Numbered from the stretch's first letter, positions 6,632 to 28,902 are shown. The stretch is DNA of 64,000 nucleotides from an uncultured Chloroflexia bacterium (GCA_963748235.1 CAVVHT010000009.1:826162-890161); one strand, 5' to 3'. Numbers and translations: made by a program. The notes: generated from the letters alone by a model not told the origin.

Positions 6632-7259
6632 GCAGAGCTCCGACTCGCGCCACCTGGTCGAGCCAGCGCTTCTCGATCTCGATCGTGCTCTTGTTGCCGT
6701 GACCGGGCAGAACACGCAAATCTGGCTCCAGTCCGCCTAGTCGGGTGAGCGACTCGACCATCTGATCGGCGCTGCCTCCGGGCAGGTCGGTCCGTCCCCA
6801 GCTGCCGGCAAAGAGCGTGTCCCCGGTGAGCAACAGCCCCTCGCCCGCGACGCTCAGGCAGACCGATCCCGCTGTGTGGCCAGGCGTGTGCAGCACCTCG
6901 ATGTCGATCGCGCCGAATTGGATCCGCGATCCCTCGGCGAGGTCGATCGCGGCGACGCTCGGCGGGATCGGAAATGGCGCTGTGGGCGGCGGGTTCTCGA
7001 TCAGCGCGTGATCGAGCGTGTGCGCAGCAAGCTGGGCGCCGGTGGCCTCCATCGCTGCCGCGTTGTCACCGATGTGATCCCAGTGCCAATGCGTGCTGAC
7101 GATGAGCTTCAGCGTCCAGCCGCGTTCCGCCAAGGTCGTCGTCAGCCACTCTACGCACGGAGTGGCGGTATCGACCGCGATCGCCTCACCGCTCGCCTCG
7201 TCGCCGAGCACGTACAGGTTGGTCGCGATCGGGCCGACGACGCGCTGCAGCAGCTTCAT
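6624..7259 (-). CDS. MBL-fold metallo-hydrolase (glyoxalase II-like)
   Basis: HxHxDH motif STHWHWDHIGDN plus downstream His/Asp ligands. 211 aa. Confidence 0.85.
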   Translation of the reverse strand: MKLLQRVVGPIATNLYVLGDEASGEAIAVDTATPCVEWLTTTLAERGWTLKLIVSTHWHWDHIGDNAAAMEATGAQLAAHTLDHALIENPPPTAPFPIPPSVAAIDLAEGSRIQFGAIDIEVLHTPGHTAGSVCLSVAGEGLLLTGDTLFAGSWGRTDLPGGSADQMVESLTRLGGLEPDLRVLPGHGNKSTIEIEKRWLDQVARVGALPI

Positions 7260-7699
7260 TCAGGGTCCTCGAGGCGAAAGAACACACCCACCGCGCGGAT
7301 GTGGCGGCGGCCGAGACGGTACATTAGGTTGCCCGGGAACGGATGCTGGTTGGTGGCCCGGATCGCCCGGTCGCGTTCCGCGCCCGGTGAGAGTCGCCGG
7401 GCGTGGAACTGCCACTCCATGCCGTTGCGCCACCTGATCATTCCACCCCCGGCGGCGTCGAGGTCGCGCGACCAGCCGACGTCTCCGTTCGGATGCCCGA
7501 GGTAAGTCCGACCATCGGTCAATAGGATGCCCACCAGCCGGCTGCGCATGCTGCCCTTGCGGCTGCGCACCCGAAGCTCGACCACGTTGCCGATCCCGAA
7601 TGTGTGCCATGCGCGACGAATCAGCGGATCGAATAGGGCCAGCAACCGGTATTGCACGCGATAGGCTGAGCGCCAGAATTGAGACACTGCGCTGAGCAT
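7256..7699 (-). CDS. DUF385/PF04075-like deazaflavin (F420)-dependent nitroreductase family protein
   Basis: SRKGSMRSRLVGILLTDGRTYLGHPNGDVGWSRDLDAAGGGMIRWRNG fits the Ddn-family pattern GRKSG..R..PL.Y..DG....ASKGG...P.WY.NL.A.P.V. Start assumed at MLSAVSQ (7699). Its 4-bp overlap with the MBL gene suggests an operon. Confidence 0.5.
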   Translation of the reverse strand: MLSAVSQFWRSAYRVQYRLLALFDPLIRRAWHTFGIGNVVELRVRSRKGSMRSRLVGILLTDGRTYLGHPNGDVGWSRDLDAAGGGMIRWRNGMEWQFHARRLSPGAERDRAIRATNQHPFPGNLMYRLGRRHIRAVGVFFRLEDPE

Positions 7700-7726
7700 A
7701 GGTCGACCTTCCGGGAGGCGATGTAG

Positions 7727-8476
7727 ATGGCTGGTTCGTTCACCTGGTACGGGCACTCCTGCGTCCTGATGCGCACGCCGGGCGGCAAGGTCGTGCTGTT
7801 CGATCCTTGGTTCGGCAATCCAACGTCGCCGGTTGACGAAAGCGCCGTCAACGAATGCGACGTGATGCTCGTCTCACACGGCCACCACGATCACCTGGGC
7901 TCGGGCCCGCGCCTGGTTCTTGATGCCGACTCGATCCAGATCGCGCGCCGAACCCGGCCCGCATGGCCATGCGTACACGAGCTTTCGCTGTGGCTGGAGG
8001 ACCGACTCGACGGCGCCGGAGTCGAGATCATGGGCATGAACAAGGGCGGTACGGTCTCGGCCGCCGGCTTGAATGTGACCATGGTTCACGCCGACCACTC
8101 GGCGGGCGATTGGTCCGCCGCCGGCGACGGGCCGCTGTACCTCGGCGAGCCGGTCGGCTTCGTGATCGAGCTCGAGGACGGTCGACCCATCTACTTCGCC
8201 GGCGACACGGACGTCTTCGGCGACATGGCTCTGATCCGAGACATGCATCACCCCGACATGGCCTTCCTGCCGATCGGCGGGCACTACACGATGGGTCCGG
8301 CTGGGGCGGCGCGCGCGGCACAGTTGCTCGGCGTGCGCGCGCTCGTGCCGATCCATTACGGCACGTTCCCGGTTCTGGCCGGCACTCCCGATGCGCTTCG
8401 CTCGGAGCTGTCGAAGCTTGGCCTTGCAGTCGCTGTCATCGCCCCGGAGCGCGGCGTCGAAACGCCCCTCCCCTGA
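7727..8476 (+). CDS. UPF0173-family metal-dependent hydrolase (MBL fold)
   Basis: MAGSFTWYGHSCVLMRTPGGKVVLFDPWFGNP and LVSHGHHDHLG. Confidence 0.8.
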   Translation: MAGSFTWYGHSCVLMRTPGGKVVLFDPWFGNPTSPVDESAVNECDVMLVSHGHHDHLGSGPRLVLDADSIQIARRTRPAWPCVHELSLWLEDRLDGAGVEIMGMNKGGTVSAAGLNVTMVHADHSAGDWSAAGDGPLYLGEPVGFVIELEDGRPIYFAGDTDVFGDMALIRDMHHPDMAFLPIGGHYTMGPAGAARAAQLLGVRALVPIHYGTFPVLAGTPDALRSELSKLGLAVAVIAPERGVETPLP

Positions 8477-12091: not shown

Positions 12092-15849
<3,758 letters not shown>

Positions 15850-15951
15850 GGGCGCTATACTCGGCCCCGGCCGGTCGCGCCGCGCTCAACGACCTCCGCG
15901 GCTGGCCAACCCGTTTCTGAGCGCGACCTTGCGGAGGCCGTAGCGACCACC

Positions 15952-16242
15952 TTGTCCTCGAACGTCGCCCAGAGCTATCCCTACACGACCGAAACCGAGT
16001 CCGAGCGCGCCCTGAAAATCGCGGCGCTGACGGAGCAGTTCGATGGCCTGCGCGACAAGATCGCGGCCGAGAGCGAGCCGGTTGCCTATGACGATCCAGA
16101 GGAGCCCGGCCGGCCGAATCGGATGTGGGTCTTCGTGTGTCCCAAACATGTCTCGGGCCGGCTGCACGTCGCAGGCTATGCCCGCGAGCGACACGCCCTG
16201 TTCGCGGTCTGCGACGAGGGCGGCGAAACCTACCTCCGCTGA
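15952..16242 (+). CDS. small hypothetical protein (Cys/His-containing)
   Basis: High GC3. Contains MWVFVCPKHVSGRLHVAGYARERHALFAVCDEGGETYL. Sits 15 bp upstream of the zinc-ribbon membrane protein gene. Confidence 0.45.
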   Translation: MSSNVAQSYPYTTETESERALKIAALTEQFDGLRDKIAAESEPVAYDDPEEPGRPNRMWVFVCPKHVSGRLHVAGYARERHALFAVCDEGGETYLR

Positions 16243-16257
16243 CCGCCTCGGCGCTCG

Positions 16258-17418
16258 ATGGCTGACGAGGAGACGCGCCCGAAATCGCCGGTCGTCACCT
16301 GTCACCAGTGCGGCAACGAGGTTCCGCGGCTCGCGTTCTGCATCCGCTGCGGCGACCCTCTCGACGACGAGTACAACGCGGAGTCCCAGCGCCAGCAGCG
16401 GCGCCGCTTCGCAGCAGCGCCGGATGAGCCGCTCGCGACCGTCGCGCTGAGCACCCTATTCCCGCAGCTGCCGCGGGCCGAGATGCGCTACTTCCGGATT
16501 GCGCTCGGCGTCGGAGTGGCGATCGTCGTCGCTCTTGGGCTGCTCGGCTTCTTCCCGATGGCGCTCGTTGCCGCGGCCGTGCTCGTGCCGACGCTGATGG
16601 TTCTCTACCTGTACGTGACCGACATCTACGAGGACGAGCCGCTGTGGGTCTATGCCGCCACGATGCTCTGGGGTGCGCTCGCAGGCGTCGTCTACGGGCT
16701 GGCCGTGCGCAACCTATCGACTGGGAGTGCCTTTGGCGGACCGGATGTGCCGGCGATTCTGCTCGCCGGCGTGGCATTGCCGCTTGTCGAGGGGGCGCTG
16801 ATGATCGCTGGCCCGCTGCTTCTGCTTCGACTGCCACGCTTCAACGACGTGCTCGACGGCGCTACCTTCGGTGCTGCCTCGGCAGTCACCTTCAGCGGCG
16901 CCCACCTGCTCGTTCAGTCGGCCGACCTGCTCGGCGCGGGACTGCGGCCGGCTGGTGATCCCTTGCCGTGGGTCATCCAGCTCGTCTCGCTCGGAGTCCT
17001 GCAGCCGGTCATCGCGGCCGGCGCCATCGGTGCCGCCGCAGCCGCCTTCTGGCTGCGTTATCGCGCTCCGATTACCGACCGCCACGCGCTCGGCATCGTC
17101 GGCCGTCCGTGGGCGGCGCTCCTGTTCGCTGCCGCTCTCCTGGTCGTTGCCGGACTGGCGAAATCAATGCTGACGCTTATTCCAGCCACGATCGTGCTCG
17201 CCGCCGTCGCGGCAGTGGCGCTGATCTGGCTGCGTCGCGCCATTCACCTCGGCCTGCTCCAGGAAGCACGCGAGATCGAGGTCGAGCGCTCGATTGCGTG
17301 CCCGAACTGCGGCCACACCACGCCAGAGCACACCTTCTGCGGCCACTGCGGCATCGCCCTGCGGGCGCTGCCGCGCGGCGCGTCAGCCAAGCGTGCCGCG
17401 AAGGAAGCTCACCAATGA
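16258..17418 (+). CDS. polytopic membrane protein with N- and C-terminal zinc-ribbon motifs; possibly a PrsW/CAAX-like intramembrane protease
   Basis: N-terminal CHQCG...CIRCG, C-terminal CPNCG...CGHCG, and at least six TM helices. Possible protease-like motifs YEDEP, LVEGA, SGAHLL. The stop overlaps the downstream ATG (ATGA). Confidence 0.65.
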   Translation: MADEETRPKSPVVTCHQCGNEVPRLAFCIRCGDPLDDEYNAESQRQQRRRFAAAPDEPLATVALSTLFPQLPRAEMRYFRIALGVGVAIVVALGLLGFFPMALVAAAVLVPTLMVLYLYVTDIYEDEPLWVYAATMLWGALAGVVYGLAVRNLSTGSAFGGPDVPAILLAGVALPLVEGALMIAGPLLLLRLPRFNDVLDGATFGAASAVTFSGAHLLVQSADLLGAGLRPAGDPLPWVIQLVSLGVLQPVIAAGAIGAAAAAFWLRYRAPITDRHALGIVGRPWAALLFAAALLVVAGLAKSMLTLIPATIVLAAVAAVALIWLRRAIHLGLLQEAREIEVERSIACPNCGHTTPEHTFCGHCGIALRALPRGASAKRAAKEAHQ

Positions 17419-18373
17419 GCGGCCCTCAGCAGCCGCTTCAGCCACCGCCCGGCTACGGCTACCCGCCTTCTCAGGGATACGGCACGCCACCGCCGGGATA
17501 TGGACCGCCGCCCGGCTACGGATATGGCGCGCCGCCACCACCGGGCGGTTCGCGCATGGGCGCCGGTGCCATCGTCGCCGTGTTCGTCGGAGTGCTGGTC
17601 GCCGTTGCGTTGATCGCCGGCCTGGTCGTGTTGCTCAATCAGCCGCCGCCGCCGGTCCCGGACTGCCAGCCTGGCACACCCTGTGCCCCTCGACCGACAC
17701 TGCCGCCGATCGCCGACCGCTCACCGCTTCCGACGGTGCAGCCGACCAGCGAGCCTTCGCCATCGGCGTTGCCCAGCCCGACGACACCCGGGCAGACGCA
17801 ACCGCACCCGCTACAGCCTGTCGCCGACGGGTGGACCGCTGCCGACCGCGACGCCCGGGCTCGGACTCGCCACCCGCCGTCACCGGCCAGACGTGGACCA
17901 GCTCGACGCTCGGCTACTCCTTCGAATACGACCCTGAGATCTTCGAGCTGGCCAGCGAGGACGACGACACGGCCGTATTCAGTGGCACTTTCTTCGACGC
18001 CCAGGTCGTGGTCGAGGCGACCGACGCGACGACTTCACCGGCCGAGATGCTCGCCCGCCAGCTGGCCAAGGTCGACGAGCGGATCATCGCCCGCGCGCCC
18101 GACTCCGACGAGTACGACGCGTTGCTCGGCCCGAGCATCGGCTACATCCGCGGCGAGGGCGCGGTGTTCGGTGGCACACTCCTCGGCCGCGACGGCACTC
18201 CCGTGGCACCTGCCGGCGTGGTCGTCATGTCTTCGACCGACGGGCGCATCACCGTCGCCGTGATCCTGCTGGTTGCCACGCCCGACGTTCGCCTCGGCTC
18301 CGACACGCACCTGCACGCCGTGCGCGACGCGGCCGACGACTTCCTCAAGACCTTCAACTGGGGTGGAACGTGA
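17415..18373 (+). CDS. PPGYG-repeat single-pass membrane protein with Pro-rich linker and C-terminal extracytoplasmic domain (frameshifted near 17820-17890)
   Basis: MSGPQQPLQPPPGYGYPPSQGYGTPPPGYGPPPGYGYGAPPPPGG, then TM helix AIVAVFVGVLVAVALIAGLVVLL, then a PT-rich linker. The domain TWTSSTLGYSFEYDPEIF...FLKTFNWGGT is in another frame. Confidence 0.55.
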
Positions 18374-20038
18374 GACGCGCGGGGCTGATCCTGGCTCTGC
18401 TCGCGCTGCTCGGGTTGTGGCGCGCCGGCGACCGATTTCGAGCGCTGAGCTCATGTCGACCTCGGACCGACGGCCGCCGATGAGCAGGTCCAGTTCACGG
18501 TCAGCCTGCGGCTGCCCGGCGCGGCCGCCCTCGACGAGTACCTTGCCGGCCTCACATCGCCCGGCTCGCGCTACTACCGCAAGTACCTGCGCCCGGCCGA
18601 GTTCGGCGCCCGCTTTGGCCTCGACGACGAGCAGCTCGGGCGCGTCGTCGCGTGGCTCGAGCAGGGTGGCCTGGAGGTCGCCGCGTCGCCGCAGCGCACC
18701 TCGCTGGCGGTCAGCGGCCGCGTCGCGGAGGTGAACCGGCTGCTCGACATCACCCTCGTCGACCGCCAGAACGCGAGCGGTGACCGCTTCCACCGCCCTG
18801 TTGGCCAGCCGAGCGTGCCGCGATGACGTCGAGCGCCGACGTGGCAGCGATCCTGGGCCTCGACACCGAGCCGCTGATCGAGCCCGCGCTCGGCGGCATC
18901 CTCGCCGCCGGCGTCGGCGCTGACGGCCTGCTGCCGGCGACCGTTGCGCGCGCGTACGAGATCGAGCCGCTTCACGCGGCCGGGCTGCACGGCCAGGATC
19001 AGGCGGTCGCGATCGTCTCGTTCGACACGTTCACGCCGAGCGACGTCGACCTGTTCGACGAGCGCCAGGCCATCGACTCGCCGCCGGTCGAGCTGGTCCG
19101 CCTCGATGGCGCTCGAACCGAGCCCGGCCCGGGCACGGGCGAGGTCGCGCTCGACATCCAGGTCATCCGCGGCATCGCGCCGCAGGCGCGGATCATCAAC
19201 TACGAGGGGCCGAACTCGGCCGACGGGTTCGCCGGCATCATCAATCGCATCGTGGCCGACGACCAGGTGCGCATCGTGAGCATCAGCTGGGGCTTGTGCG
19301 AGAACCACGCCGGCCGGAGCACGCTCGAGGCGATGCAGCGCGAGTTCGCGGCCGCCTTTGCGGCGGGCATCAGCGTCTTCGCCGCGAGCGGCGACGACGG
19401 CGCCTACGACTGCCGCCGCGTCGCAGATCTCGGCGGATCCGTTCGAGCGCGACCTGTCGCTTGCGGTCGACTGGCCAGCCTCGAGCCCGAGCGTCGTGGG
19501 CGTTGGCGGCACTTTCCTCTCTACCCGCCAGGACGGCACGTACATCGAGGAGGCCGGCTGGGAGGAGCCACTCGGCGGTGGCGGTGGCGGTGGCGGGCTG
19601 AGCCGCTTCCAGGAGCGGCCCGACTGGCAGCGCGGAGCCGGGGTCGAAAACGCGGCCAGCAACGGCATGCGCCAGGTGCCCGACGTGGCCGGCCCGGCCG
19701 ACCCGACGAGCGGCTTCTTCATCGTCTACACCGAGCCGAGCGAAGGAGTTGTCGCCGGCCGCGTCGGCGGCACCAGCGCCGCGGCACCGTTCTGGGCTGG
19801 CTCGATGCTGCTCACCCAGCAGCTCGCTCAGCAGCAGGGCGTCGAGGCGCTCGGCGCCATCGGGCCGACGCTGTACGAGATCGCCGGCGAGCAGCCGGCC
19901 GGCGCCGTGTTCCACGACATCATCCGCGGCGGAAACCTGCTGTTCAGCGCCGGCCCGGGCTGGGACTTCTCGACCGGTCTCGGCACTCCCCGCGTTGCGC
20001 CGCTCGCCCAGGCGATCGTCGACCACCTCTCCGAGTGA
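18370..20038 (+). CDS. peptidase S53 (sedolisin/kumamolisin-like) with propeptide; about three apparent frameshifts
   Basis: Signal peptide (GTG start, LILALLALLGL); pro-kumamolisin-type propeptide (QVQFTVSLRLPGAAALDEYL...WLEQGGLEV); catalytic SGDDG and GGTSAAAPFWAG. Frame switches near 18450, 18820 and 19440. Gly8 run at about 19570. Confidence 0.75.
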
Positions 20039-20062
20039 CGCGCCACATCCAAGGGTGAGGCG

Positions 20063-21436
20063 CTAGCCCTCCAGCTGGTGCGCAGCCTCGCTGAAGAGGC
20101 CGCCCATCGCGCGCGATGTCGTCGGGAAGGCGGTGATCGTCTGCGCCAGTACCTCGATCCTGGTGCGCGTCTTGATCGCCAGCACGGCCATGTGAATCGC
20201 CTCTGACGCACCCGGGCCGGCGATGAACGCGCCGACGAGCTCGCGCGCGTCGCGGTCGACGACGATCGAAACGTGGCCGGATGCCTCCACCGCCTGGCCC
20301 TTGGCCGTTTCGGCAAGGTCGACCGTCAGCTCGAAGGCATCGATGCCCTTGTCCTTCGCCTGGTCGACCAGCAGTCCGACACCGCCCGTCTCGGGGTCGG
20401 TGTAGACGCAGCGCGGGATTGCCCGGTAGTCGGGCGTGACGTCGTCGCCGAGAGCAATCGCGACTGCCGTCTCGCCCTGGTAGTGCGCGAGGTGGGTGTG
20501 CATCTCGGGACCGGCCGGATCGCCAACGACGTACGTGTCGGGGGCAATGCGCATCTTCTCGTCGGGCGAGACGCGGCCCTTGACGATCTCGACACCGATC
20601 GCATCGAGACCCAGGCCGTCGAGGGGCAGCGTCCGGCCGATCGACAGCATCAGCTCGTGACCCTCGACCGACGTGCCATCGGCGAGCTTGACGACGTGAG
20701 CGCCATCCTTCCCGGCACTGGGCTCGACGCTCTCGGCACGGACGCCGAGGCGCAGCTCGACTCCGTCCGCGCGCAGCCCTTCGGCGATCGCCTCCGAGCT
20801 GCGCGGATGGTCGCGGTCGTTAAGCCGTTTCGGCGACTGGACGAGCGTGACCGGCACGCCATAGCGGGCGAAGACCTGGGCCATCTCGAGCCCGGTCGGG
20901 CCGCCGCCCAGGATGGCCAGGCTGCGCGGCAGGGTCGCGCGTGCTGGTCGCCTCGCGATTGGTCCACGGCTTGACCTGGTCGAGGCCGGGCAGGTCCGGC
21001 ACGGTCGAGCGGCTGCCCACGGCGACGATCAGGTTGCGACCTGTGATCTCGCGCGTGCCGCCGCCCTTGGTCATCTTCACGCGTCACCGCGCCCGGCCCG
21101 ATGATCGTCGCCTCGCCGCGGATCACCTCGGCGCCGGCGTCCTCGAGCCGCTTGACGTGGCCGCTGTCGTCGGGCCAGTCGAGCTTGACGCGGTTGATCA
21201 TGTAGTCGCGGAAGTCGGACGCCCGCGGCCATGCCATAGCCACTGCCCTTGGCGTGCACGGCCGCCGCGTGGAGCAGCGCCTTGGATGGCACGCACGCCC
21301 AGAACGGGCACGAGCCACCGAACAGCTCGCGGTCGATGATCGCCACTGTTGCGCCACGCCGCCGCGCCTCGTGCGCGGCGGCCTCGCCGCCCGCGCCGGC
21401 ACCGACGATGACGAAGTCGAAGTCGGGGCCGCTCAC
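20063..21436 (-). CDS. class I pyridine nucleotide-disulfide oxidoreductase (dihydrolipoamide dehydrogenase / mycothione-reductase-like), about three apparent frameshifts
   Basis: FAD motif DFVIVGAGAGG; redox-active disulfide GGSCPFWACVPSK; NAD motif LAILGGGP (out of frame); C-terminal dimerisation domain with ITAFPTTSRAMGG. Confidence 0.8.
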
Positions 21437-22640
21437 CTCTCCGCGCCGAGCAGCAGCGCGGCAATCAGCGTCGTGCGCGGCACGATCGAGTCGATCTCGA
21501 GGTACTCGCCCGGCGCGTGATCGGCGCCGCCAACTGGGCCGAGGCCGTCGAGCGTCGGCACGCCCATGCCCGACGTCGTGTTCGCGTCGGACGCACCACC
21601 GGTCGCCGCGTCACGCAGCTCGAAGCCCAGCCGAGCGGCGATGTCGATCGCCTGCTCGGCGAGCGCGGCAGTCGCCGGCTTCTTCTCCATGGGCGGCCAG
21701 AAGTGACGCTGCGTCGCGGTTGCCGTCACGTCGGCGACCGTGTTCGTGGCCGCGATCTCCCTGATCGCCGCCTCCACCTCTGCCATCGCCTCGCTCGTCG
21801 TGGCGCGGACGTCGATCTCGAGCTCGGTGCGCTCGGCGACGACGTTCGGCCGCGTGCCGCCGCGCACGACGCCGACGTTGACCGTCACGCCCGGCCAGCG
21901 GCCGTTGAGCGCGTGGAGCGCCAGGATCTTGTGCGCGGCCTCGAGCGTCGAGCTGCTGCCCTTTTCCGGCTCCACTCCTGCATGCGCGGCGCGACCGTCG
22001 ATTCGGATCAGGAAATCGGCGATTCCCTTGCGCGCACTGACGATGTCGCCGTTCTCGCGCGCCGACTCGAGCACGAGCGCAATCGACGCGCCCTCGGCGC
22101 AGCGCCGGATGACGGCAGTGCTCGTCGGCGAGCCGATCTCCTCGTCGGGATTGGCGACGTACACCAGGCGACCGAACGGCAGCCATCGCTGACCGGTGTC
22201 CCGGCCGGGTGGAGAGCGCGCAGCGCCCGCAACGCGTACAGCCCGCCGAGCAGGCCGCCCTTCATGTCGTCGACGCCGGGCCCGTAGGCACGCCCATCGC
22301 GGACGGTGAAAGGACGCTCGGCAACCGTGCCGTCGGCGAAGACCGTGTCGAGGTGGCCGACCAGCAGCGCTCGTGAGCTCCCGGCCCCCTCGAGCTCGCC
22401 GATGACGATGTCGCCGAGCTCGGCGTTGGCCTCGACCGTCACCGCCGCGCCCAGATCGGCCAGCTGATCGGCCATCCAGCGGCCGACCTCGTCGACGCCG
22501 TCCTTGGTGTACGAGCCGCAGTCGATGTTGACCAGTCGCTCGAGATCGGCCATGTAGGCGGGCAGGCTGGCCTCGATGTGGTCGCGCAGCCTGCCGAGCT
22601 CTTCGTCGGTGACCTGCCCGACCGTTGTGTCGATTGCCAT
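21433..22640 (-). CDS. M20 family metallopeptidase (ArgE/DapE/CPG2/Sapep-like), one apparent frameshift near 22200
   Basis: LLVGHLDTVF, GPGVDDMKGG, NPDEEIGSP, EYLEIDSIVPRTTLIAALL. Overlaps the downstream oxidoreductase start by 4 bp. Confidence 0.8.
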
Positions 22641-22680
22641 GTCGGCAGGGTAATCGACCGCCCATATACTCCGCCCCACC

Positions 22681-24530
22681 GTGCGTCTAGTCGAAATCCG
22701 CCTGCTCGACGGCCCGAACATCTATCGGCTGGAGCCGACGGTGCGAATTGAGGTCGTCGTCGGGCGCCGCCGCACCTGGTATGGGCAGCGATCGCCGGGC
22801 AGGCACGCGATCGTCAGGCTCGGCGCGCGCGTGTCGCGGCTTCCGCGGCGCCGTCATCGGTTGCGGAGCTGGCTGGATGGGTGCGCAAGCTTCACCGTCG
22901 CGCGCTCAAGCGAACCGTGCCAGTGACCATCCACCAAACGAGCGAGCCCGGTCGGTGGGTAGTCGCCTATCCGTGGCGCGATGGCAGCCAGGCCGAACTC
23001 ATCGCCCAGGCGGCGTTGCGCCTGACCGATCAGGCGAGCGACCGCCTGCTGGAGCGTGCCGTGCGCCGCATCCGCGACGCGGAGGGCGCCGCACCGCTGT
23101 GGATCACCGATGAGCGACGCCGCGCCGCAAATCCACGTCTGCAGCTGATCTCGGTCAGTGGCACGAACGGCAAGAGCACCACGACCAGGATGATCACCCA
23201 CATTGCCCGCGCCGGCGGCCGTCGCGTGGGCACGACGACGACCGACGGAGTGCTGATCGACGAAGAGATGATCGAGCCAGGTGACTTCAGCGGGCCACAG
23301 GGGGCGCGAGCCGTTATGCGCCACACCGAGGTCGAGGTTGGCGTCCTCGAGACTGCCCGGGGCGGCATCCTGCTGCGCGGCCTGGCGTACGAGTCGAACG
23401 AAGCCAGCGTGCTGACCAACGTCAGCGCCGATCACCTCGACCTGCAGGGTCTGCATACGCTGCCCGAGCTGGCCGAGGTCAAATCGGTCATCTGCCGCGT
23501 CACGCGACCGGAGGGCACGGTCGTGCTCAACGCCGACGATCCGCTGCTGGTGCCGATCGCGCGGCGAGTGCGCGCACCGGTGACCTTCTTCAGCCTCAAT
23601 CCGCGCAGCTCGCGCGTCCGATCGCACGTCGCTCGCGGCGGCACCGCCTTCGTGCTCGACGATGGCTGGATCGTCGAGCTGGCCGGGTCCAAGCGGCGGC
23701 GGATCGTGGCCGCGGCCGAGCTGCCGGCCACTCTCGGCGGGCTGGCGCGGCACAACGTCGCCAACGCGCTCGCCGCCGCCGCTGGTGCGCGGGCGATCGG
23801 CATGTCCTACCGCGCGATCGCCGACGGGCTGCGCGGCTTCCGCAACACGGCCGACCTGATGCCAGGCCGGCTGAACCTGTACCGCAAGGGTGATCGCCTC
23901 GTCGTCGTCGACTATGCGCACAACGAGGCCGGCCTGGCCGCGCTGTTCGACACGATCGAGGGACTCGTCGGCCGGCGTGGCAAGCGGCGCGCCACCGTGA
24001 GCGTGATCATCGGCGCGGCCGGCGATCGCCCGGACGATGCCATGCGCGCCGTCGGCCAGCTGGCCGCGCGGCGCGCCGACGAGGTCGCGATCAAGGAGGA
24101 CCTGCCCTTCCTGCGCGGCCGGACGCGGGCAAGTGCCATCGGCGAGCTGCGCGAGGGCATTCGTGCCGGCGGCACGAACCCCTCCTCGGCGCCGGTGTAC
24201 GAGCTGGAGCTCGATGGCCTGGTCGGCGAGCTGACGACTCCCGGCCGCATGGCCGCCACGGAAGACGGCACGCCGCGCGTGGTGATGCTGATGTGCCACG
24301 CCGAGCGCGACGCGGTCGCGCGCTACCTCGCGGGCGAAGGGTTCGTCGAGGTGGAGGACGTCGGCATCGCTCGGAGCGTTTCGCCCGCAAGCCGGCCTAG
24401 GGACGCCGGCGGTGAACCAGGGCCAGGAAGCCGATCGGCTCACCCTTCGGATCATCGCGCGGCTGGAACTCATCGCCCAGCTCATGGATGCGCCGCCTCA
24501 GCTCGGCCAGGTCGTCGGGTGCGAGCCTGA
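22681..24530 (+). CDS. cyanophycin-synthetase paralogue with N-domain fused directly to the Mur-ligase-like M domain (no ATP-grasp G domain); frameshift near 22870
   Basis: The N-terminus MRLVEIRLLDGPNIYRLEPTVRIEVVV parallels CphA LRILETRVLRGPNIWFRGPAIVMLVDL. TVPVTIHQTSEPGRWVVAYPWRDGSQAELIAQAALRL parallels TVAHIGKTRSAGATGQYNVVYEYREEEVGREAGRIAVAL. The Mur-ligase P-loop ISVSGTNGKSTTTRMI then follows immediately, where cphA has about 330 aa of ATP-grasp. The 3' end overlaps the ArsR gene, so the true end is uncertain. Confidence 0.75.
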
Positions 24531-24918
24531 CCCCGAGTCGAACGGTCGTCAGTGGGGCATCGTCGCCCGCCTCGAGCAGCTCGTCGCGAACGGCGTCGAG
24601 GACAGTCGCGGTGTGATCAGCACTCGGCAGCATCCGGATCTGCCACGACTTGCCCGTGCTGCGGTACGGCCGCTCCACCGAACCGCGCTTGCCGCGACGC
24701 GGCTCATCAGCGACCAGGAACCCACCGCTCACGAGCGCCTTGACGTGATGCAGGATCGTGCCCGGATCGCGGTCCAGCCGCTCGGCGATCTCCTTGTTGG
24801 TCAGCGCCTTGTCGATCGTCAGGCGCAGGATGCGCAGTCGCAGCGGATGACCGAGCGTGCGCATCTCGTCGGCCGTGGCGTCGCGTATCGGTGGCGCTGA
24901 TCGAGCAGTGATGGACAA
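24397..24918 (-). CDS. ArsR/SmtB-family winged-helix transcriptional regulator
   Basis: HPLRLRILRLTIDKALTNKEIAERLDRDPGTILHHVKALVSGGFL. Confidence 0.7.
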   Translation of the reverse strand: MSITARSAPPIRDATADEMRTLGHPLRLRILRLTIDKALTNKEIAERLDRDPGTILHHVKALVSGGFLVADEPRRGKRGSVERPYRSTGKSWQIRMLPSADHTATVLDAVRDELLEAGDDAPLTTVRLGVRLAPDDLAELRRRIHELGDEFQPRDDPKGEPIGFLALVHRRRP

Positions 24919-24936
24919 TTCCCCACTAGTGGACTA

Positions 24937-26080
24937 TTGTCCATCATTATGACATCACGACGTCCGCTCGGTTGGCTTGCCATCACTTCCATCACCGCTC
25001 TGGCCATCGTCGGGTGCGCCGGTGGCGCCGCTCCGACGCCGCCCGACTGCCCCCGACACTCACCGCAACGCGCGAGCGCGACGACTGAGCCGACCGAGAC
25101 GGCCACTCCTACCGATCAGCCCTCCCCGACCGGCACTCCCGCTGCGACCGCCACGGCGGCCCCGACCGACACTCCCGCGCCATCCGATTCGCCGTCGGCA
25201 ACGGCCACGGCACGGGCCAACGCTACCGACACGCCGGCCGGCGCATCGCCTGCGATCCAGGTCGGCACCGGGCCGATCGGCATCGTCGCGACCGAGGACG
25301 CCATCTGGGTCGCGACCTTCTACGACGGTGAGCTGGTGCGGATCGACCCCGAGACGATGACGGTCACCGACAACGTGCCCGTCGGCGACGGAGCGATCGG
25401 CGTGGCGTACGCCGTCGGGTCATTGTGGGTGGCCACTCACCTCACCGGTGAGCTCGTGCGCGTCGATCCCGAGACGCGCGAGGTCACGGCGCGAATCGAG
25501 GTCGGCGCCGAGCCCGAAGGCGTCTGCGGCGACGACGGCCAGGTGTGGGTGACGAGCGAGGCGGCCGGAGGCGCTGTTCGCATCGATCCCGAAACGAACG
25601 AGGTCGTGACCAGCGTGGCGGTCGGCCGCGCGCCGCGTCACTGCGGAGTCGGCTTCGGTTCGGTGTGGGTGACCAACTGGGGCTCGGCGACCATGACGCG
25701 CATCGATTCGGAATCGAACGAGGTGATCGAGACGATCGGGCTCCATTTCGGTCCCGAGGGGCTGGCCTTCACCGACACCGGCGTGTGGGTGGCCAACCAG
25801 ACCGCCGGCTCGGTCTCGCTGGTCGATCCCGAGACCAACGAGGAAACGACCGAGATCCAGATCGGCATGCTGCCCGAGGGCATCGCGATCGGCGACGACG
25901 GACTCGTCTGGGCGGCCACGACCCAGCTCGATCACATCGAGGGCGATCGATCCGGAGTCGGGCGAGATCGTCGAGACCCTCGAGACCGGCAACGAGCCAC
26001 GCCGCATCGTCATCGTCGACGGTCAGGCGTGGGTCACCAACACCGGTGCCGGCACGGTCTCGGTAATCCCGCTCGACTGA
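24937..26080 (+). CDS. lipoprotein with YVTN-type beta-propeller repeats (YncE-like); frameshift near 25930
   Basis: Lipobox LAIVGCAG, a PT-rich linker, then seven or more repeats of the form G..P.G.A......VWV.N...G.V.RIDPET.EV. Confidence 0.65.
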
Positions 26081-26086
26081 GGCGGG

Positions 26087-28902
26087 TTAGCCCTCTTCGA
26101 CCTCGAACTCGCCCGGGTGGGCGATGGCGCTGCCGCCGCCCTTGCGCCGCACTTCTTCCATCACCTGGCGGTAGGCGCCGGTGATGTCGTCGCTGCAGAC
26201 CATGACGAGATCGCCCGGGGTCGCCTGGGCCATGCCCGTCGTGACCGCGGCCATCTCGTCGGTGACTATCGAAGCCGTGGCACAGCGGCCACCCTCGCGT
26301 TGCGCCTTGCTCACGCCGGCCAGGACCAGATCGGCCGACTCACCCGGCTTGCGGCCGCGTAGCTTCTTGTCCTCGCGCACGACGATCGTGTCGAAGGCAT
26401 GGCCGGCCAATCGGCCGTACTCGCGGTGGTCGTCGTCGCGTCGGTCGCCGGGAATGCCGATCACGCCGATCGCGGTGCCGCGCCTGCCGCCGGACCCACC
26501 GTCGACCGCAGGGCTGCCGCGCTGGGCGGCCGCATCATGAGCTCGACGAACTCGGTCAGCCTGCGCATGCCATCGACGTTGTGGCAGTAATCGAGGAAGA
26601 CCTTGTAGCCGTCGACCTGGATCTCGTTGAGCCGGCCGGGTGCCTGGAAGAACGACGTGGTGAAGGTGCGCAAGCCCTGGCGGATGTCGTGCAGGTGCGC
26701 ACCGGCGGCCCACGCTGCACCGGCCGCGGCGAGCGCGTTGGCCACGTTCATCCGCGCGCGGCCCTCGAAAGTGGCCGGGATCTGGTGCGTGTAGAGCAGC
26801 GGCATCGTGCGCTCGGCGTGGCGCAGCACGACCAGCTCGCCGTCGTCGGTCTGCTGCACGACCATCGCCGCGCCGCCGCGGCCGCAGTGGCCGTCGACCC
26901 GGTCGTAGCCCTCCTCGCCGCGTTCGCGGGCCATCGAGAAGTAGACGACGCTGCCGCGGCTCTGGCGGGCCATCCGCGCGACAAGCGGATCGTCGGCATT
27001 GAGCACGGCCATGCCCGCGCGCGGCACGGCATCGACGATGACCGACTTGACCTGCGCCAGCTGGCTCATCGTCTCGACGCCGTTCAGCCCGAGGTGGTCG
27101 CCGGTGACGTTGGTCACGACGGCGACGTCGTTGCGGTCGTAGCCGAGCCCCTCGCGCAGGATGCCGCCGCGCGCGACCTCGAACACCGCCGTGTCGACCG
27201 ATGGGTTCTGGAGCACCATCTGCGCCGAGCGCGGGCCGGACATGTCGCCCTTCCGGATGAGCCGGCCGTCGACGACGATGCCGTCGGTCGTGGTCATGCC
27301 CACCCGACGGCCCATCAGCTTCAGGATGTGGCCGATCATCCGCACCGTCGTCGTCTTGCCGTTGGTGCCGGTCACCCAGATGATCGGGATTCGCGCGTTC
27401 GAGCCCTGCGGGAAGAGCAGGTCGAGGACCGGCTTGGCGACGTACTGCGGCTCGCCCTCGGTCGGATTGGTGTGCATCCGGAAGCCCGGCGCGGCGTTGA
27501 CCTCGACGATCGCCCCGCCCTGCTCGCGAACGGGCACGGTGATGTCGGGCGCGATGAAGTCGATCCCGGCGATGTCCAGCCCGACCACCTGCGCGGCGGT
27601 CTCGGCAATCTCGACGTTGTCGGGATGCGCCTCGTGCGTCCGATCGATGGCCGTGCCGCCGGTCGACATGTTGCCCGTCGCGGCGAGCATCACCCGCTGG
27701 CCCTTCTTGGGCACGTCGTCGAGCCCCAGGCCCTGCTTGCGAACCAGCTCTTCCGCGCCGGCCGTGATGCGGATCCGCGTCAGCACGCGCTCGTGACCGA
27801 TGCCGCGCCGCGGGTCGCTGTTCTCCTTGTCGACCAGCGCGCGGACGCTGAGCTTGCCGTCGCCCACGACACTCGCCGGCACTCGTTCGGCGACCGCGGC
27901 CAGCTTGCCGCCGACGACGAGCACGCGATAGTCGTTGCCGCGCACGAAGGTCTCGACGACGACGTCGCCGCCGCGGCTCTCCTCGCGCGCCAGCGTGTAC
28001 GCGTCGCGGACGGCCTGCTCGTCGCGCAGGTCGAGGGCCACGCCGCGCCCGTGGTTGCCGTCGAGCGGCTTGACGACGACCGGGTAGCCGAGCTTCTCGG
28101 CCGCTTCGACGGCGCCGTCGGCCGAGCGCACGACCTGCGAGCGCGGCACGGGCATGCCGGCCGAGCTGAGCAGCGTGTTGGTCAGGCTCTTGTCGGAGGC
28201 GATGTCGACACCGATCGCCGACGTGCGCGAGGTCATCGTCGCCCGGATGCGCTGCTGGTGGACGCCCTGCCCGAGCTGAACAAGGCTGTGCCGGTCGAGC
28301 CGGATCCACGGGATGTCGCGCGAAACGGCCTCGTCGACGAGCGCCTGGGTCGACGGCCCGAACGCGTTCCGCTCGGCGAGCCGGATCAGCCCCTCGAGCT
28401 CATCGGCGAAGTCGAACGGCGCCGCCTCGGGGTTGACGAGGAAGTTGACGAGCGCGACCGCGATCCGGCCGGCCTCGCGGCCGACCTCCTCCTCGCGATA
28501 CTCGTAGACGACGTTGTACTGGCCCGTTGCGCCCGCCGAGCGCGTCTTGCCGATATGGGCGACGGTGCCGGCCAGGCTCTGCAGCTCGAGCGCGATGTGC
28601 TCGCTGACGTGGCCCAGCCACGTCCCATCATTGAGCCGGGTGACGAAGCCGCCGCGGCGGCCGAGCGAGCAGGCGTGGTCCTCGAGCGACGGGATGAGCT
28701 GCAGCAGCGCCTCGTTGAAGTGCGGGATCTTGTTGCTCGGCCACTCCTCGAGCTCGCCCAGGTCGACGAGCATCACGATTGCCGGGCCGCGGAACCAGAT
28801 GTTCGGACCGCGCAGCACGCGCGTCTCGAGGATGCGCAGTGTCGGCTGGGGCCCTTGGGACTGCCCTTGGGTCTTCCGTCGCGGTGCTGCGGCTTTCGCC
28901 AT
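26087..28902 (-). CDS. cphA: cyanophycin synthetase (N + ATP-grasp + Mur-ligase domains); frameshift near 26500
   Basis: N domain LRGPNIW; ATP-grasp PVVVKPLDGNHGRGV; M-domain P-loop IIWVTGTNGKTTT; C-terminal tail GVIGIPGDRRDDD...DLVMVCSDDITGAYRQVMEEV recovered in a second frame. The start is probably a little downstream of 28902. Confidence 0.9.

Follow-up and report, generated by a model that had tools for sequence, protein, structure and literature searches.

What do four closely packed genes, here called g1 to g4, make together at positions 15,952 to 20,038 of a 64,000-nucleotide stretch of DNA from an uncultured Chloroflexia bacterium (GCA_963748235.1 CAVVHT010000009.1:826162-890161; the whole stretch is termed the window)? 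An initial annotation, made from the sequence alone, read them as an operon for a small Cys/His protein (g1), a polytopic membrane protein with zinc ribbons (g2), a single-pass membrane protein (g3) and a secreted sedolisin of the S53 peptidase family (g4). It saw in this a regulated-proteolysis module, possibly an anti-sigma-like substrate with its site-1 and site-2 proteases. A different arrangement is favoured here. With a probability of somewhat more than one-half (about 0.55), comparison of the sequences points to g2, g3 and g4 forming a membrane-scaffolded and cytoplasmically coupled surface protease complex rather than a classical site-1/site-2 cascade.

The combination of g2, g3 and g4 is undescribed in the searchable literature; each of the parts belongs to a known superfamily. 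Literature searches brought up nothing linking PrsW-like proteins with sedolisins and nothing on a PrsW pseudoprotease, and those pairing Limnocylindria with S53 or kumamolisin returned unrelated papers only. The module forms a large family without functional study in abundant uncultured soil and freshwater lineages, namely Limnocylindria and metagenome-assembled genomes (MAGs) labelled Gaiellales, Solirubrobacterales and Acidimicrobiales, and it offers a lead on how membrane-tethered sedolisins may be controlled in bacteria.

A conserved and often fused gene set

The packing of the four genes is as first described: g1 and g2 are separated by 15 bp, the stop codon of g2 overlaps the start of g3 (ATGA), and that of g3 overlaps the start of g4 (GTGA). 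A scan of one genome per GTDB species with a g2 profile gave 80 loci, and in 56 of the 62 species loci with at least 3 kb of DNA downstream of g2, the genes g2, g3 and g4 follow one another in this order and in the same orientation. The order is kept down to about 42% identity in g2, the genes upstream being different ones, and start/stop overlaps of 4 bp between g3 and g4 are common across the loci. The neighbourhood comparison that the initial annotation had proposed thus bears out the operon as a conserved unit of co-oriented and translationally coupled genes. A non-protease fold for g2 together with a lack of synteny elsewhere, the outcome that it regarded as contrary to its own reading, is not what was found.

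The genes are joined as well as neighbouring. Among the 150 best cluster representatives from the g2 search, 30 are fusions of g2 with g3 and 6 are fusions of g2, g3 and g4 (e.g. P0303, P0331 and P0350), and g3 and g4 form one open reading frame (ORF) in loci L039, L043 and L055. In the double fusions of g2 with g3 and in the triple fusions, the transmembrane (TM) helix of g3 follows directly on the C-terminal ribbon of g2, so that the g2 C-terminus replaces the cytoplasmic tail of g3, and the PsbP-like domain of g3 is joined to the sedolisin in fusions without an intervening TM helix. The sedolisin is extracytoplasmic, because as a stand-alone product it comes with a signal peptide. The order of the parts in the fusions and the signal peptide of g4 together place both g2 ribbons in the cytoplasm, and the g3 ectodomain and g4 outside. 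Fused forms of g2 are also without the catalytic residues of PrsW, so the fused polypeptides are not obviously self-releasing. The natural fusions point to a stable complex rather than a cascade of protease and substrate, and they give an unusually clear prediction: that the three protein types act as one machine.

The same fusions could be read as a PrsW-type device for export and release, in which the TM bundle of g2 helps to translocate the PsbP-like domain and the sedolisin as C-terminal or neighbouring cargo and then releases the enzyme proteolytically into the medium, for degradative or antagonistic ends, after the model of Zhang and Aravind for PrsW-toxin fusions. Such a device is very unlikely here. 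A PrsW-like domain at the N-terminus followed by extracytoplasmic cargo is indeed the layout of the PrsW-toxin proteins (PMC3482391), but the versions of PrsW fused to zinc ribbons are clearly distinct from those associated with toxins (Zhang et al. 2012, PMC3482391), and neither an immunity-like gene nor polymorphic C-termini were seen. The sedolisin of some triple fusions has no signal peptide of its own; in fusions, however, a ninth TM helix, that of g3, carries the cargo across and no conduit is needed, while the sedolisin of the window's clade has a lipoprotein signal of its own. The catalytic motifs for release, moreover, are missing.

Several variants of the module were encountered on the way. 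The triple fusions P0303 and P0350 are without the pro-kumamolisin activation domain and have the PsbP-like domain in the place of the prodomain, whose part as chaperone or inhibitor it may perhaps take over. In L055, from a MAG labelled Gaiellales, a g3+g4 fusion of 758 aa (394-2670) is found immediately upstream of g2, with a second sedolisin downstream, and in L046 (3376-4314) and L064 (6745-7980) an ORF upstream of g2 matches just the prodomain part of the g4 profile. Paralogous modules also exist, as two g2 modules occur on different contigs of one genome in the pairs L043/L044 (MAG JBBRYP01), L027/L076 and L063/L081.

g2, a probable pseudoprotease of the PrsW superfamily

The zinc-ribbon pairs reported at both termini of g2, and a core of six or more TM helices, are both there: CxxC...CxxC patterns are matched by DZR/Zn_ribbon models of Pfam, and hydropathy gives about eight hydrophobic segments. 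Homologs are many (n = 635, mostly from Limnocylindria MAGs), and an exhaustive search gave 1165 representatives of clusters at 50% identity at E<=1e-3, and 232 at E<=1e-30. Source pipelines have named several of these homologs 'ribosomal protein L32' or 'uncharacterized OB-fold protein', misannotations apparently due to zinc-ribbon matches. Of the names in use for proteins of the g2 type, 'ribosomal protein L32' and 'PrsW family glutamic-type intramembrane protease' are both likely to mislead.

The kinship of g2 is with PrsW (YpdC; PF13367, MEROPS M82), which in Bacillus subtilis acts as site-1 protease on the anti-sigma-W protein RsiW. The window g2 itself has no match to PF13367 at E<=0.1, but 17 of 39 close homologs do, with a best E of 2.4e-8 and scores of 24-34 bits (cut-off 23.5); in most of them the match is confined to profile positions 1 to about 95 of 196. 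Alignment by hhalign pairs g2 residues 112-217 with residues 13-115 of a sequence taken to be B. subtilis PrsW (72% probability, E 3e-5). This sequence is a member of the PF13367 family (E 1.2e-34), and it has two motifs in common with g2: DxYxxEP, which comes behind the first helix, and F[DN][DE]xxDGxx[FY]GA. On sequence profiles, which are the source of the fold assignment in place of a structure model, the core of g2 shows homology to PrsW over the N-terminal half of the latter, and the protein is probably a member of the PrsW superfamily, from PrsW itself it differs by one more TM helix at the N-terminus and by the ribbons at both ends. Fusion of ribbons to PrsW-type proteins, as in g2, is already in the literature (PMC3482391).

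The initial annotation also credited g2 with PrsW-like acidic and His motifs; the relationship to PrsW stands, but the catalytic motifs are not conserved. PrsW's active site is predicted to consist of EExxK in the third TM helix (TMH3), a His in TMH5 and HxxxD in TMH6 (PMC4602095). At position 178 of g2, the equivalent of EExxK, a Glu stands in the window protein, in 34 of the 39 close homologs, in 16 of 54 species loci and in 17 of 136 cluster representatives; Gly (51), Ala (35) and Ser (17) are found among the remainder of these 136, and neither a second Glu nor a Lys is present. Where PrsW has the TMH5 His, the g2 family has Ala (84), Gly (19) or Met (14). For HxxxD, no column with a polar majority was found among the representatives in residues 277-322 (TM7/TM8), and the sole conserved His, H330, sits past the last TM helix on the cytoplasmic side.

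Conservation in g2 is concentrated elsewhere. All eight ribbon cysteines, including C348/C351/C361/C364 of the C-terminal ribbon, are kept in at least 99% of representatives, R326 in 100%, H330 in 90% and E336 in 87%. Also conserved are D122/E125/D126, N196/D197/D200, an Arg-rich loop and the stretch R326-x3-H330-LGL-x-Q-E336-xx-E339. Topology predicts a cytoplasmic position for the conserved residues, of which D200, R326, H330 and E336 are the best conserved besides the ribbons. Because the PrsW catalytic motifs are not conserved, g2 is probably a pseudoprotease, a non-catalytic protein of PrsW fold whose key surface would be cytoplasmic. If it is non-catalytic, it may be a bacterial pseudoprotease acting as scaffold or regulator; we know of no earlier prokaryotic case of an intramembrane-protease fold reused in this way for another protease, a principle known so far chiefly from eukaryotes.

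The cascade proposed in the initial annotation would have g3 as a membrane substrate or sensor, cut by g4 in its ectodomain or Pro-rich linker (a site-1 or trimming cut), whereupon g2, as an active though atypical intramembrane protease of PrsW type, would cut g3 in turn, the ribbons and g1 relaying the signal inward. This is unlikely. Homology of g2 to the site-1 protease of the sigma-W pathway and the retention of E178 in the window's clade argue for it, and a variant active site might be made up of the conserved acidic clusters, but across the g2 family the PrsW motifs are not conserved. The long Pro-rich linker of g3 would offer a target, since kumamolisin-type enzymes cut sequences of this kind; yet the cytoplasmic tail of g3 is variable, of low complexity and often absent, and g3 has neither an anti-sigma domain nor any other output domain, which takes away the anti-sigma-like substrate. 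Proteins with PrsW fused to zinc ribbons have been predicted to be signalling peptidases (Zhang et al. 2012, PMC3482391), a point in favour of a cascade, whereas a stable assembly more easily explains why the proposed protease, its substrate and the second protease are often covalently fused.

Nor is the module linked to a sigma factor or a site-2 protease, as would be expected for an extracytoplasmic function (ECF) sigma/anti-sigma system of the RsiW-PrsW-RasP type. No gene of the Sigma70 family lies within +/-8 kb of the module in the Pfam-annotated loci L001, L082 and L083, and tblastn with RpoE and SigW query sequences gave nothing credible in the 64-kb window. A weak tblastn sigma match at 1076-1150, which lies in no credible ORF, was rejected. 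Loss of the motifs, the missing anti-sigma domain, the missing sigma factor and the frequent fusions together weaken the site-1/site-2 reading. In comparison with PrsW, g2 lacks conserved EExxK, TMH5 His and HxxxD, and has no anti-sigma or sigma partner. Its linkage to a sedolisin and a single-pass protein of PsbP-like type is obligatory, and often it is fused to them.

A tethered sedolisin and its partner

The product of g4 is a pro-kumamolisin-type S53 peptidase, as first proposed, with prodomain, catalytic domain and catalytic residues all present. In the window its fragments match Pro-kuma_activ (E 5.3e-21) and, weakly, Peptidase_S8 of Pfam, and the intact ortholog of L001 aligns full-length to pro-kumamolisin 1t1e (residues 21-544) with E 1e-49. 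The motifs GEVALDI, SGDDG and GGTSAAAP align with GEVELDI, AGDSG and GGT(S278A)AVAP of kumamolisin, and the catalytic Glu, Asp and Ser of S53 and the oxyanion Asp are all found in the window, by which g4 is predicted to be catalytically competent. The likeness to kumamolisin and pro-kumamolisin (1t1e, 1gt9) thus covers prodomain, catalytic domain, the Glu-Asp-Ser triad, the oxyanion Asp and a C-terminal Ca-site motif. The differences are that g4 has a lipoprotein signal or membrane tether and sits in a three-gene module, and that some fused relatives are without the prodomain.

The tether changes one element of the initial annotation, which had the enzyme secreted. A lipobox, sought as [LVI][ASTVI][GAS]C at the end of a signal peptide, occurs in most of the near-clade orthologs listed, at residues 12-28 (LTGC, LLGC, LVGC, LAAC, GLGC, VAAC and the like), and in the window once an indel is corrected, and for this reason g4 is probably lipid-anchored, that is, a membrane-anchored lipoprotein in this clade rather than a freely secreted enzyme. 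In more distant clades g4 has a plain signal peptide or is fused to g3.

The architecture given for g3 also stands: a (PPGYG)n region, one TM helix and a Pro/Thr linker that leads to a domain of about 165 aa at the C-terminus, with an unbroken ortholog of 336 aa in L001. Alignment of orthologs shows the PPGYG tail to be variable, of low complexity, 0-50 aa long and missing in many; what is conserved is the TM helix and the segment P-P-x-P-x-x-P-C-x-P-G-x-P-C after it. The C-terminal domain had been called one of unknown fold. At the level of sequence families this holds, as g3 has no family match in Pfam or NCBIfam at E<=0.01 and none of the 57 homologs of the domain detectable by word-index search has a Pfam domain. 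Matches of g3 fragments to GldM, GltJ, DUF2613 and CtaJ were compositional or sub-threshold and were rejected. The proposed remote-homology check nevertheless places the fold. The AlphaFold2 (AF2) model from the homolog alignment has a predicted local distance difference test score (pLDDT) of 90.7 and a predicted template-modelling score (pTM) of 0.86, and its Foldseek matches in the PDB are PsbP, from cyanobacteria and from plants (2xb3, E 7e-5; 1v2b), Mog1 (5yfg) and Apa (5zx9, TM-score 0.55), followed by MTC28, Tsi3, SciW/EagT6 and DcrB. These matches range from E 7e-5 to 1e-2, with probability >=0.95 and TM-scores of 0.4-0.55.

From this model the ectodomain can confidently be assigned as a PsbP/Mog1-like sandwich. 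The PsbP/Mog1 fold is a protein-binding adaptor fold, and Tsi3, EagT6 and SciW are immunity and chaperone proteins. The modelled alpha-beta-alpha sandwich is shared with the PsbP/Mog1/DUF1795-like proteins (cyanobacterial PsbP, Apa and MTC28 of Mycobacterium tuberculosis, Tsi3, EagT6/SciW and DcrB) at a Foldseek probability of 1.0, and in the proline-rich antigens Apa and MTC28, as in g3, the domain follows a Pro-rich segment outside the cytoplasm. Unlike these proteins, to which it has about 10-14% identity at a TM-score of about 0.5 and no family match in sequence, g3 is anchored by an N-terminal TM helix with a conserved Cys pair and is dedicated to the module of g2 and g4.

The proposed complex may then work as follows. 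The products of g2, g3 and g4 would form one membrane-embedded unit, to which the window's clade would add g1. The sedolisin would be its only catalytically competent part, held at the outer face of the cytoplasmic membrane and lipid-anchored in this clade. The g3 protein would be a tether whose PsbP/Mog1-like ectodomain partners the sedolisin and may dock, chaperone or restrain it, while g2 would be a scaffold that binds the g3 TM helix and connects the outer assembly to its two ribbons and conserved cytoplasmic face. It is at this face that g1, or a cytoplasmic cue such as a metal, the redox state or a partner protein, would act. Signalling could run inside-out, as control of the protease, or outside-in, as reporting, and the substrates of the sedolisin may be envelope or extracellular Pro-rich proteins and peptides.

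A scaffold of this type has eukaryotic parallels. In the pairing of iRhom with ADAM17, iRhom is the non-catalytic scaffold of a membrane protease complex. APH-1, which acts with nicastrin in gamma-secretase, belongs to the CPBP/PrsW superfamily (PMC4602095, PMC3482391). By analogy the module would repeat the pattern of both: a non-catalytic polytopic member of a protease superfamily, a single-pass protein with a large ectodomain and an active protease. One may go further and tentatively suggest, at a probability well below one-half, that the module is a bacterial counterpart of iRhom-ADAM17 and APH-1/nicastrin, in which a PsbP-like adaptor holds the sedolisin tethered at the surface and a dead PrsW-fold protein, as a transmembrane switch, gates its maturation or activity. 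Equally tentatively, gating through the two cytoplasmic ribbons, and g1 in this clade, would amount to inside-out control of extracellular proteolysis. There are differences, in that no sequence evidence points to a specific relation with APH-1, and the active partner here is located outside the membrane and is a serine-carboxyl peptidase of family S53, of soluble type, instead of an intramembrane aspartyl protease or a metalloprotease.

Several points weigh against a scaffolded complex built on a non-catalytic g2. Loss of motifs is no proof of inactivity, D122/E125/D126 and N196/D197/D200 being conserved acidic clusters, and the Glu at position 178 persists in the window protein and in most of its close homologs. 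The C-terminal half of g2 cannot be aligned to PrsW, so the absence of the His motifs there rests on the lack of a conserved polar residue, and the PrsW sequence used is presumably, rather than certainly, that of B. subtilis. The TM-scores of the g3 matches are only about 0.5, g1 is absent from most of the module family, and physical complex formation by g2, g3 and g4 is inferred from gene order and fusions.

Host, reading frames and surroundings

The initial annotation had looked to Actinobacteria for comparison, which is the wrong setting for the window. Homologs of g1, g2 and g3 come almost all from MAGs named Candidatus Limnocylindria/Limnocylindrales or Chloroflexota, the window g2 is 100% identical to one MAG-encoded protein, and the organism is a member of Candidatus Limnocylindria (Chloroflexota). 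It is the more distant copies of the module that are found in MAGs labelled Gaiellales, Solirubrobacterales, Acidimicrobiales or Actinomycetota.

Coordinates of the four genes and their features are collected in Table 1. Neither g3 nor g4 is continuous in the window, and the initial annotation had joined their frames silently. The frame of g3 shifts once, between about 17816 and 17861, leaving the conserved C-terminal domain in another frame; that of g4 shifts near 18415-18453, 18820-18835 and 19423, with an in-frame stop near 18446, and these breaks are 1-bp insertions in comparison with L002.

Table 1. Genes and features of the locus (positions in the window)
Feature	Position	Strand	Description
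g1	15952..16242	+	96 aa, TTG start; intact ORF
g2	16258..17418	+	386 aa; intact ORF; predicted 8-TM core of the PrsW superfamily between two Zn ribbons
g2 N-terminal Cys4 zinc ribbon (CHQCG...CIRCG)	16300..16353	+	Pfam DUF7575/Zn_ribbon_6; C15, C18, C28, C31 kept in >=99% of representatives
g2 TM core	16483..17250	+	DIYEDEP 16621-16641 and FNDVLDGATFG 16840-16872, in common with PrsW
g2 juxtamembrane motif and C-terminal ribbon	17245..17352	+	R-x3-H-LGL-x-QE-xx-E, then Cys4 ribbon
g2 C-terminal Cys4 ribbon (CPNCG...CGHCG)	17299-17352	+	Pfam DZR/Zn_ribbon_3
g3	17415..18373	+	Predicted single-pass type II membrane protein; ATG at 17415, TGA ends at 18373; frame-interrupted
g3 (PPGYG)n tail	17442-17543	+	Variable; missing in many orthologs
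g3 TM helix	17553-17639	+	Conserved in orthologs
g3 conserved PxC-x5-C	17658-17684	+	From alignment of orthologs
g3 PsbP/Mog1-like ectodomain	17861-18370	+	From AF2 model and Foldseek; preceded by Pro/Thr linker
g4	18370..20038	+	Predicted lipoprotein pro-sedolisin (S53); GTG at 18370; >=3 frameshifts in window
g4 signal peptide and lipobox	about 18370-18427	+	LLALLG-CGAP once the indel at about 18415 is corrected
g4 pro-kumamolisin domain	18449-18835	+	Pfam Pro-kuma_activ
g4 catalytic domain	18835-20035	+	GEVALDI 19138-19164, SGDDG 19387-19404, GGTSAAAP 19766-19789

These breaks might be true pseudogenising mutations in a decaying and non-functional locus, for which one could cite the single shift of frame in g3, the three or more shifts in g4 and the in-frame stop. 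That is hardly credible. Frameshifts occur at a density of about 1/kb in every long gene at 12165-24401 of the window: metH (12165-15828) needs at least five frame changes, and the M20 peptidase gene (21436-22613, minus strand) and a Mur-ligase-like gene (22681-24401) need one each, so that genes outside the module are equally affected within the same 12 kb. Relatives carry g1 to g4, metH and other neighbours unbroken, namely L001 (73% identical, and used as the intact reference for the window genes), L082 and L083, with a metH product of 1261 aa in L082 and 1259 aa in L083. The genes are intact in short-read relatives, and g4 is unbroken in L001, L002, L082 and many other loci. Apart from the breaks, g3 and g4 fully keep their coding signal and their conserved residues, and related long-read MAGs (L014, L050, L079) give similar split matches. 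Because metH and its neighbours show the same density of indels and the genes are intact in relatives, the breaks are probably indels of long-read assembly rather than decay of the operon. The window looks like an unpolished long-read assembly, and readings of it that rest on ORFs need frame correction.

The small protein g1 is cytoplasmic, with 96 residues and the pattern FVCPxH ... H ... H ... VCDEGGETYLR. Its homologs (n = 306) are nearly all 96 aa long, all those listed being at least 67% identical, and C63, H66, H72 and C87 are invariant. It matches nothing in Pfam or NCBIfam; the best AF2 model has a pLDDT of 75, only one of five models being moderately confident, and Foldseek against the PDB gave nothing below E=1.9. 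Of 74 loci, 22 have g1 directly upstream of g2, each at a g2 identity of about 58% or more, and g1 is an accessory specific to the window's clade. In L082, at 7063-7950, a gene of the DoxX family is inserted between the g1 ortholog and g2, and this ortholog has a shifted set of putative metal ligands, CPRD...H...K...CDTCGE as against CPxH...H...H...CDEGGE.

The region has a G+C content of about 70%, at which a scan of 15600-20400 for promoters and terminators was uninformative, giving no promoter-like site and terminators at chance level. The stretch between metH and g1 is variable. It holds an extra Cys-containing protein of 206 aa with a hydrophobic N-terminus in L001 (6878-7498, minus strand) and an extra S8 peptidase of 811 aa with an fn3 domain in L083 (5187-7622), both missing from the window. 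Around it a wider order is conserved in Limnocylindria: metH, the variable stretch, g1 to g4, the M20 peptidase gene (opposite strand), the Mur-ligase-like gene and a cyanophycin synthetase gene (opposite strand). The conserved part after g4 corresponds to about 20063-27400 of the window and is the same downstream of g4 in L001, L082 and L083.

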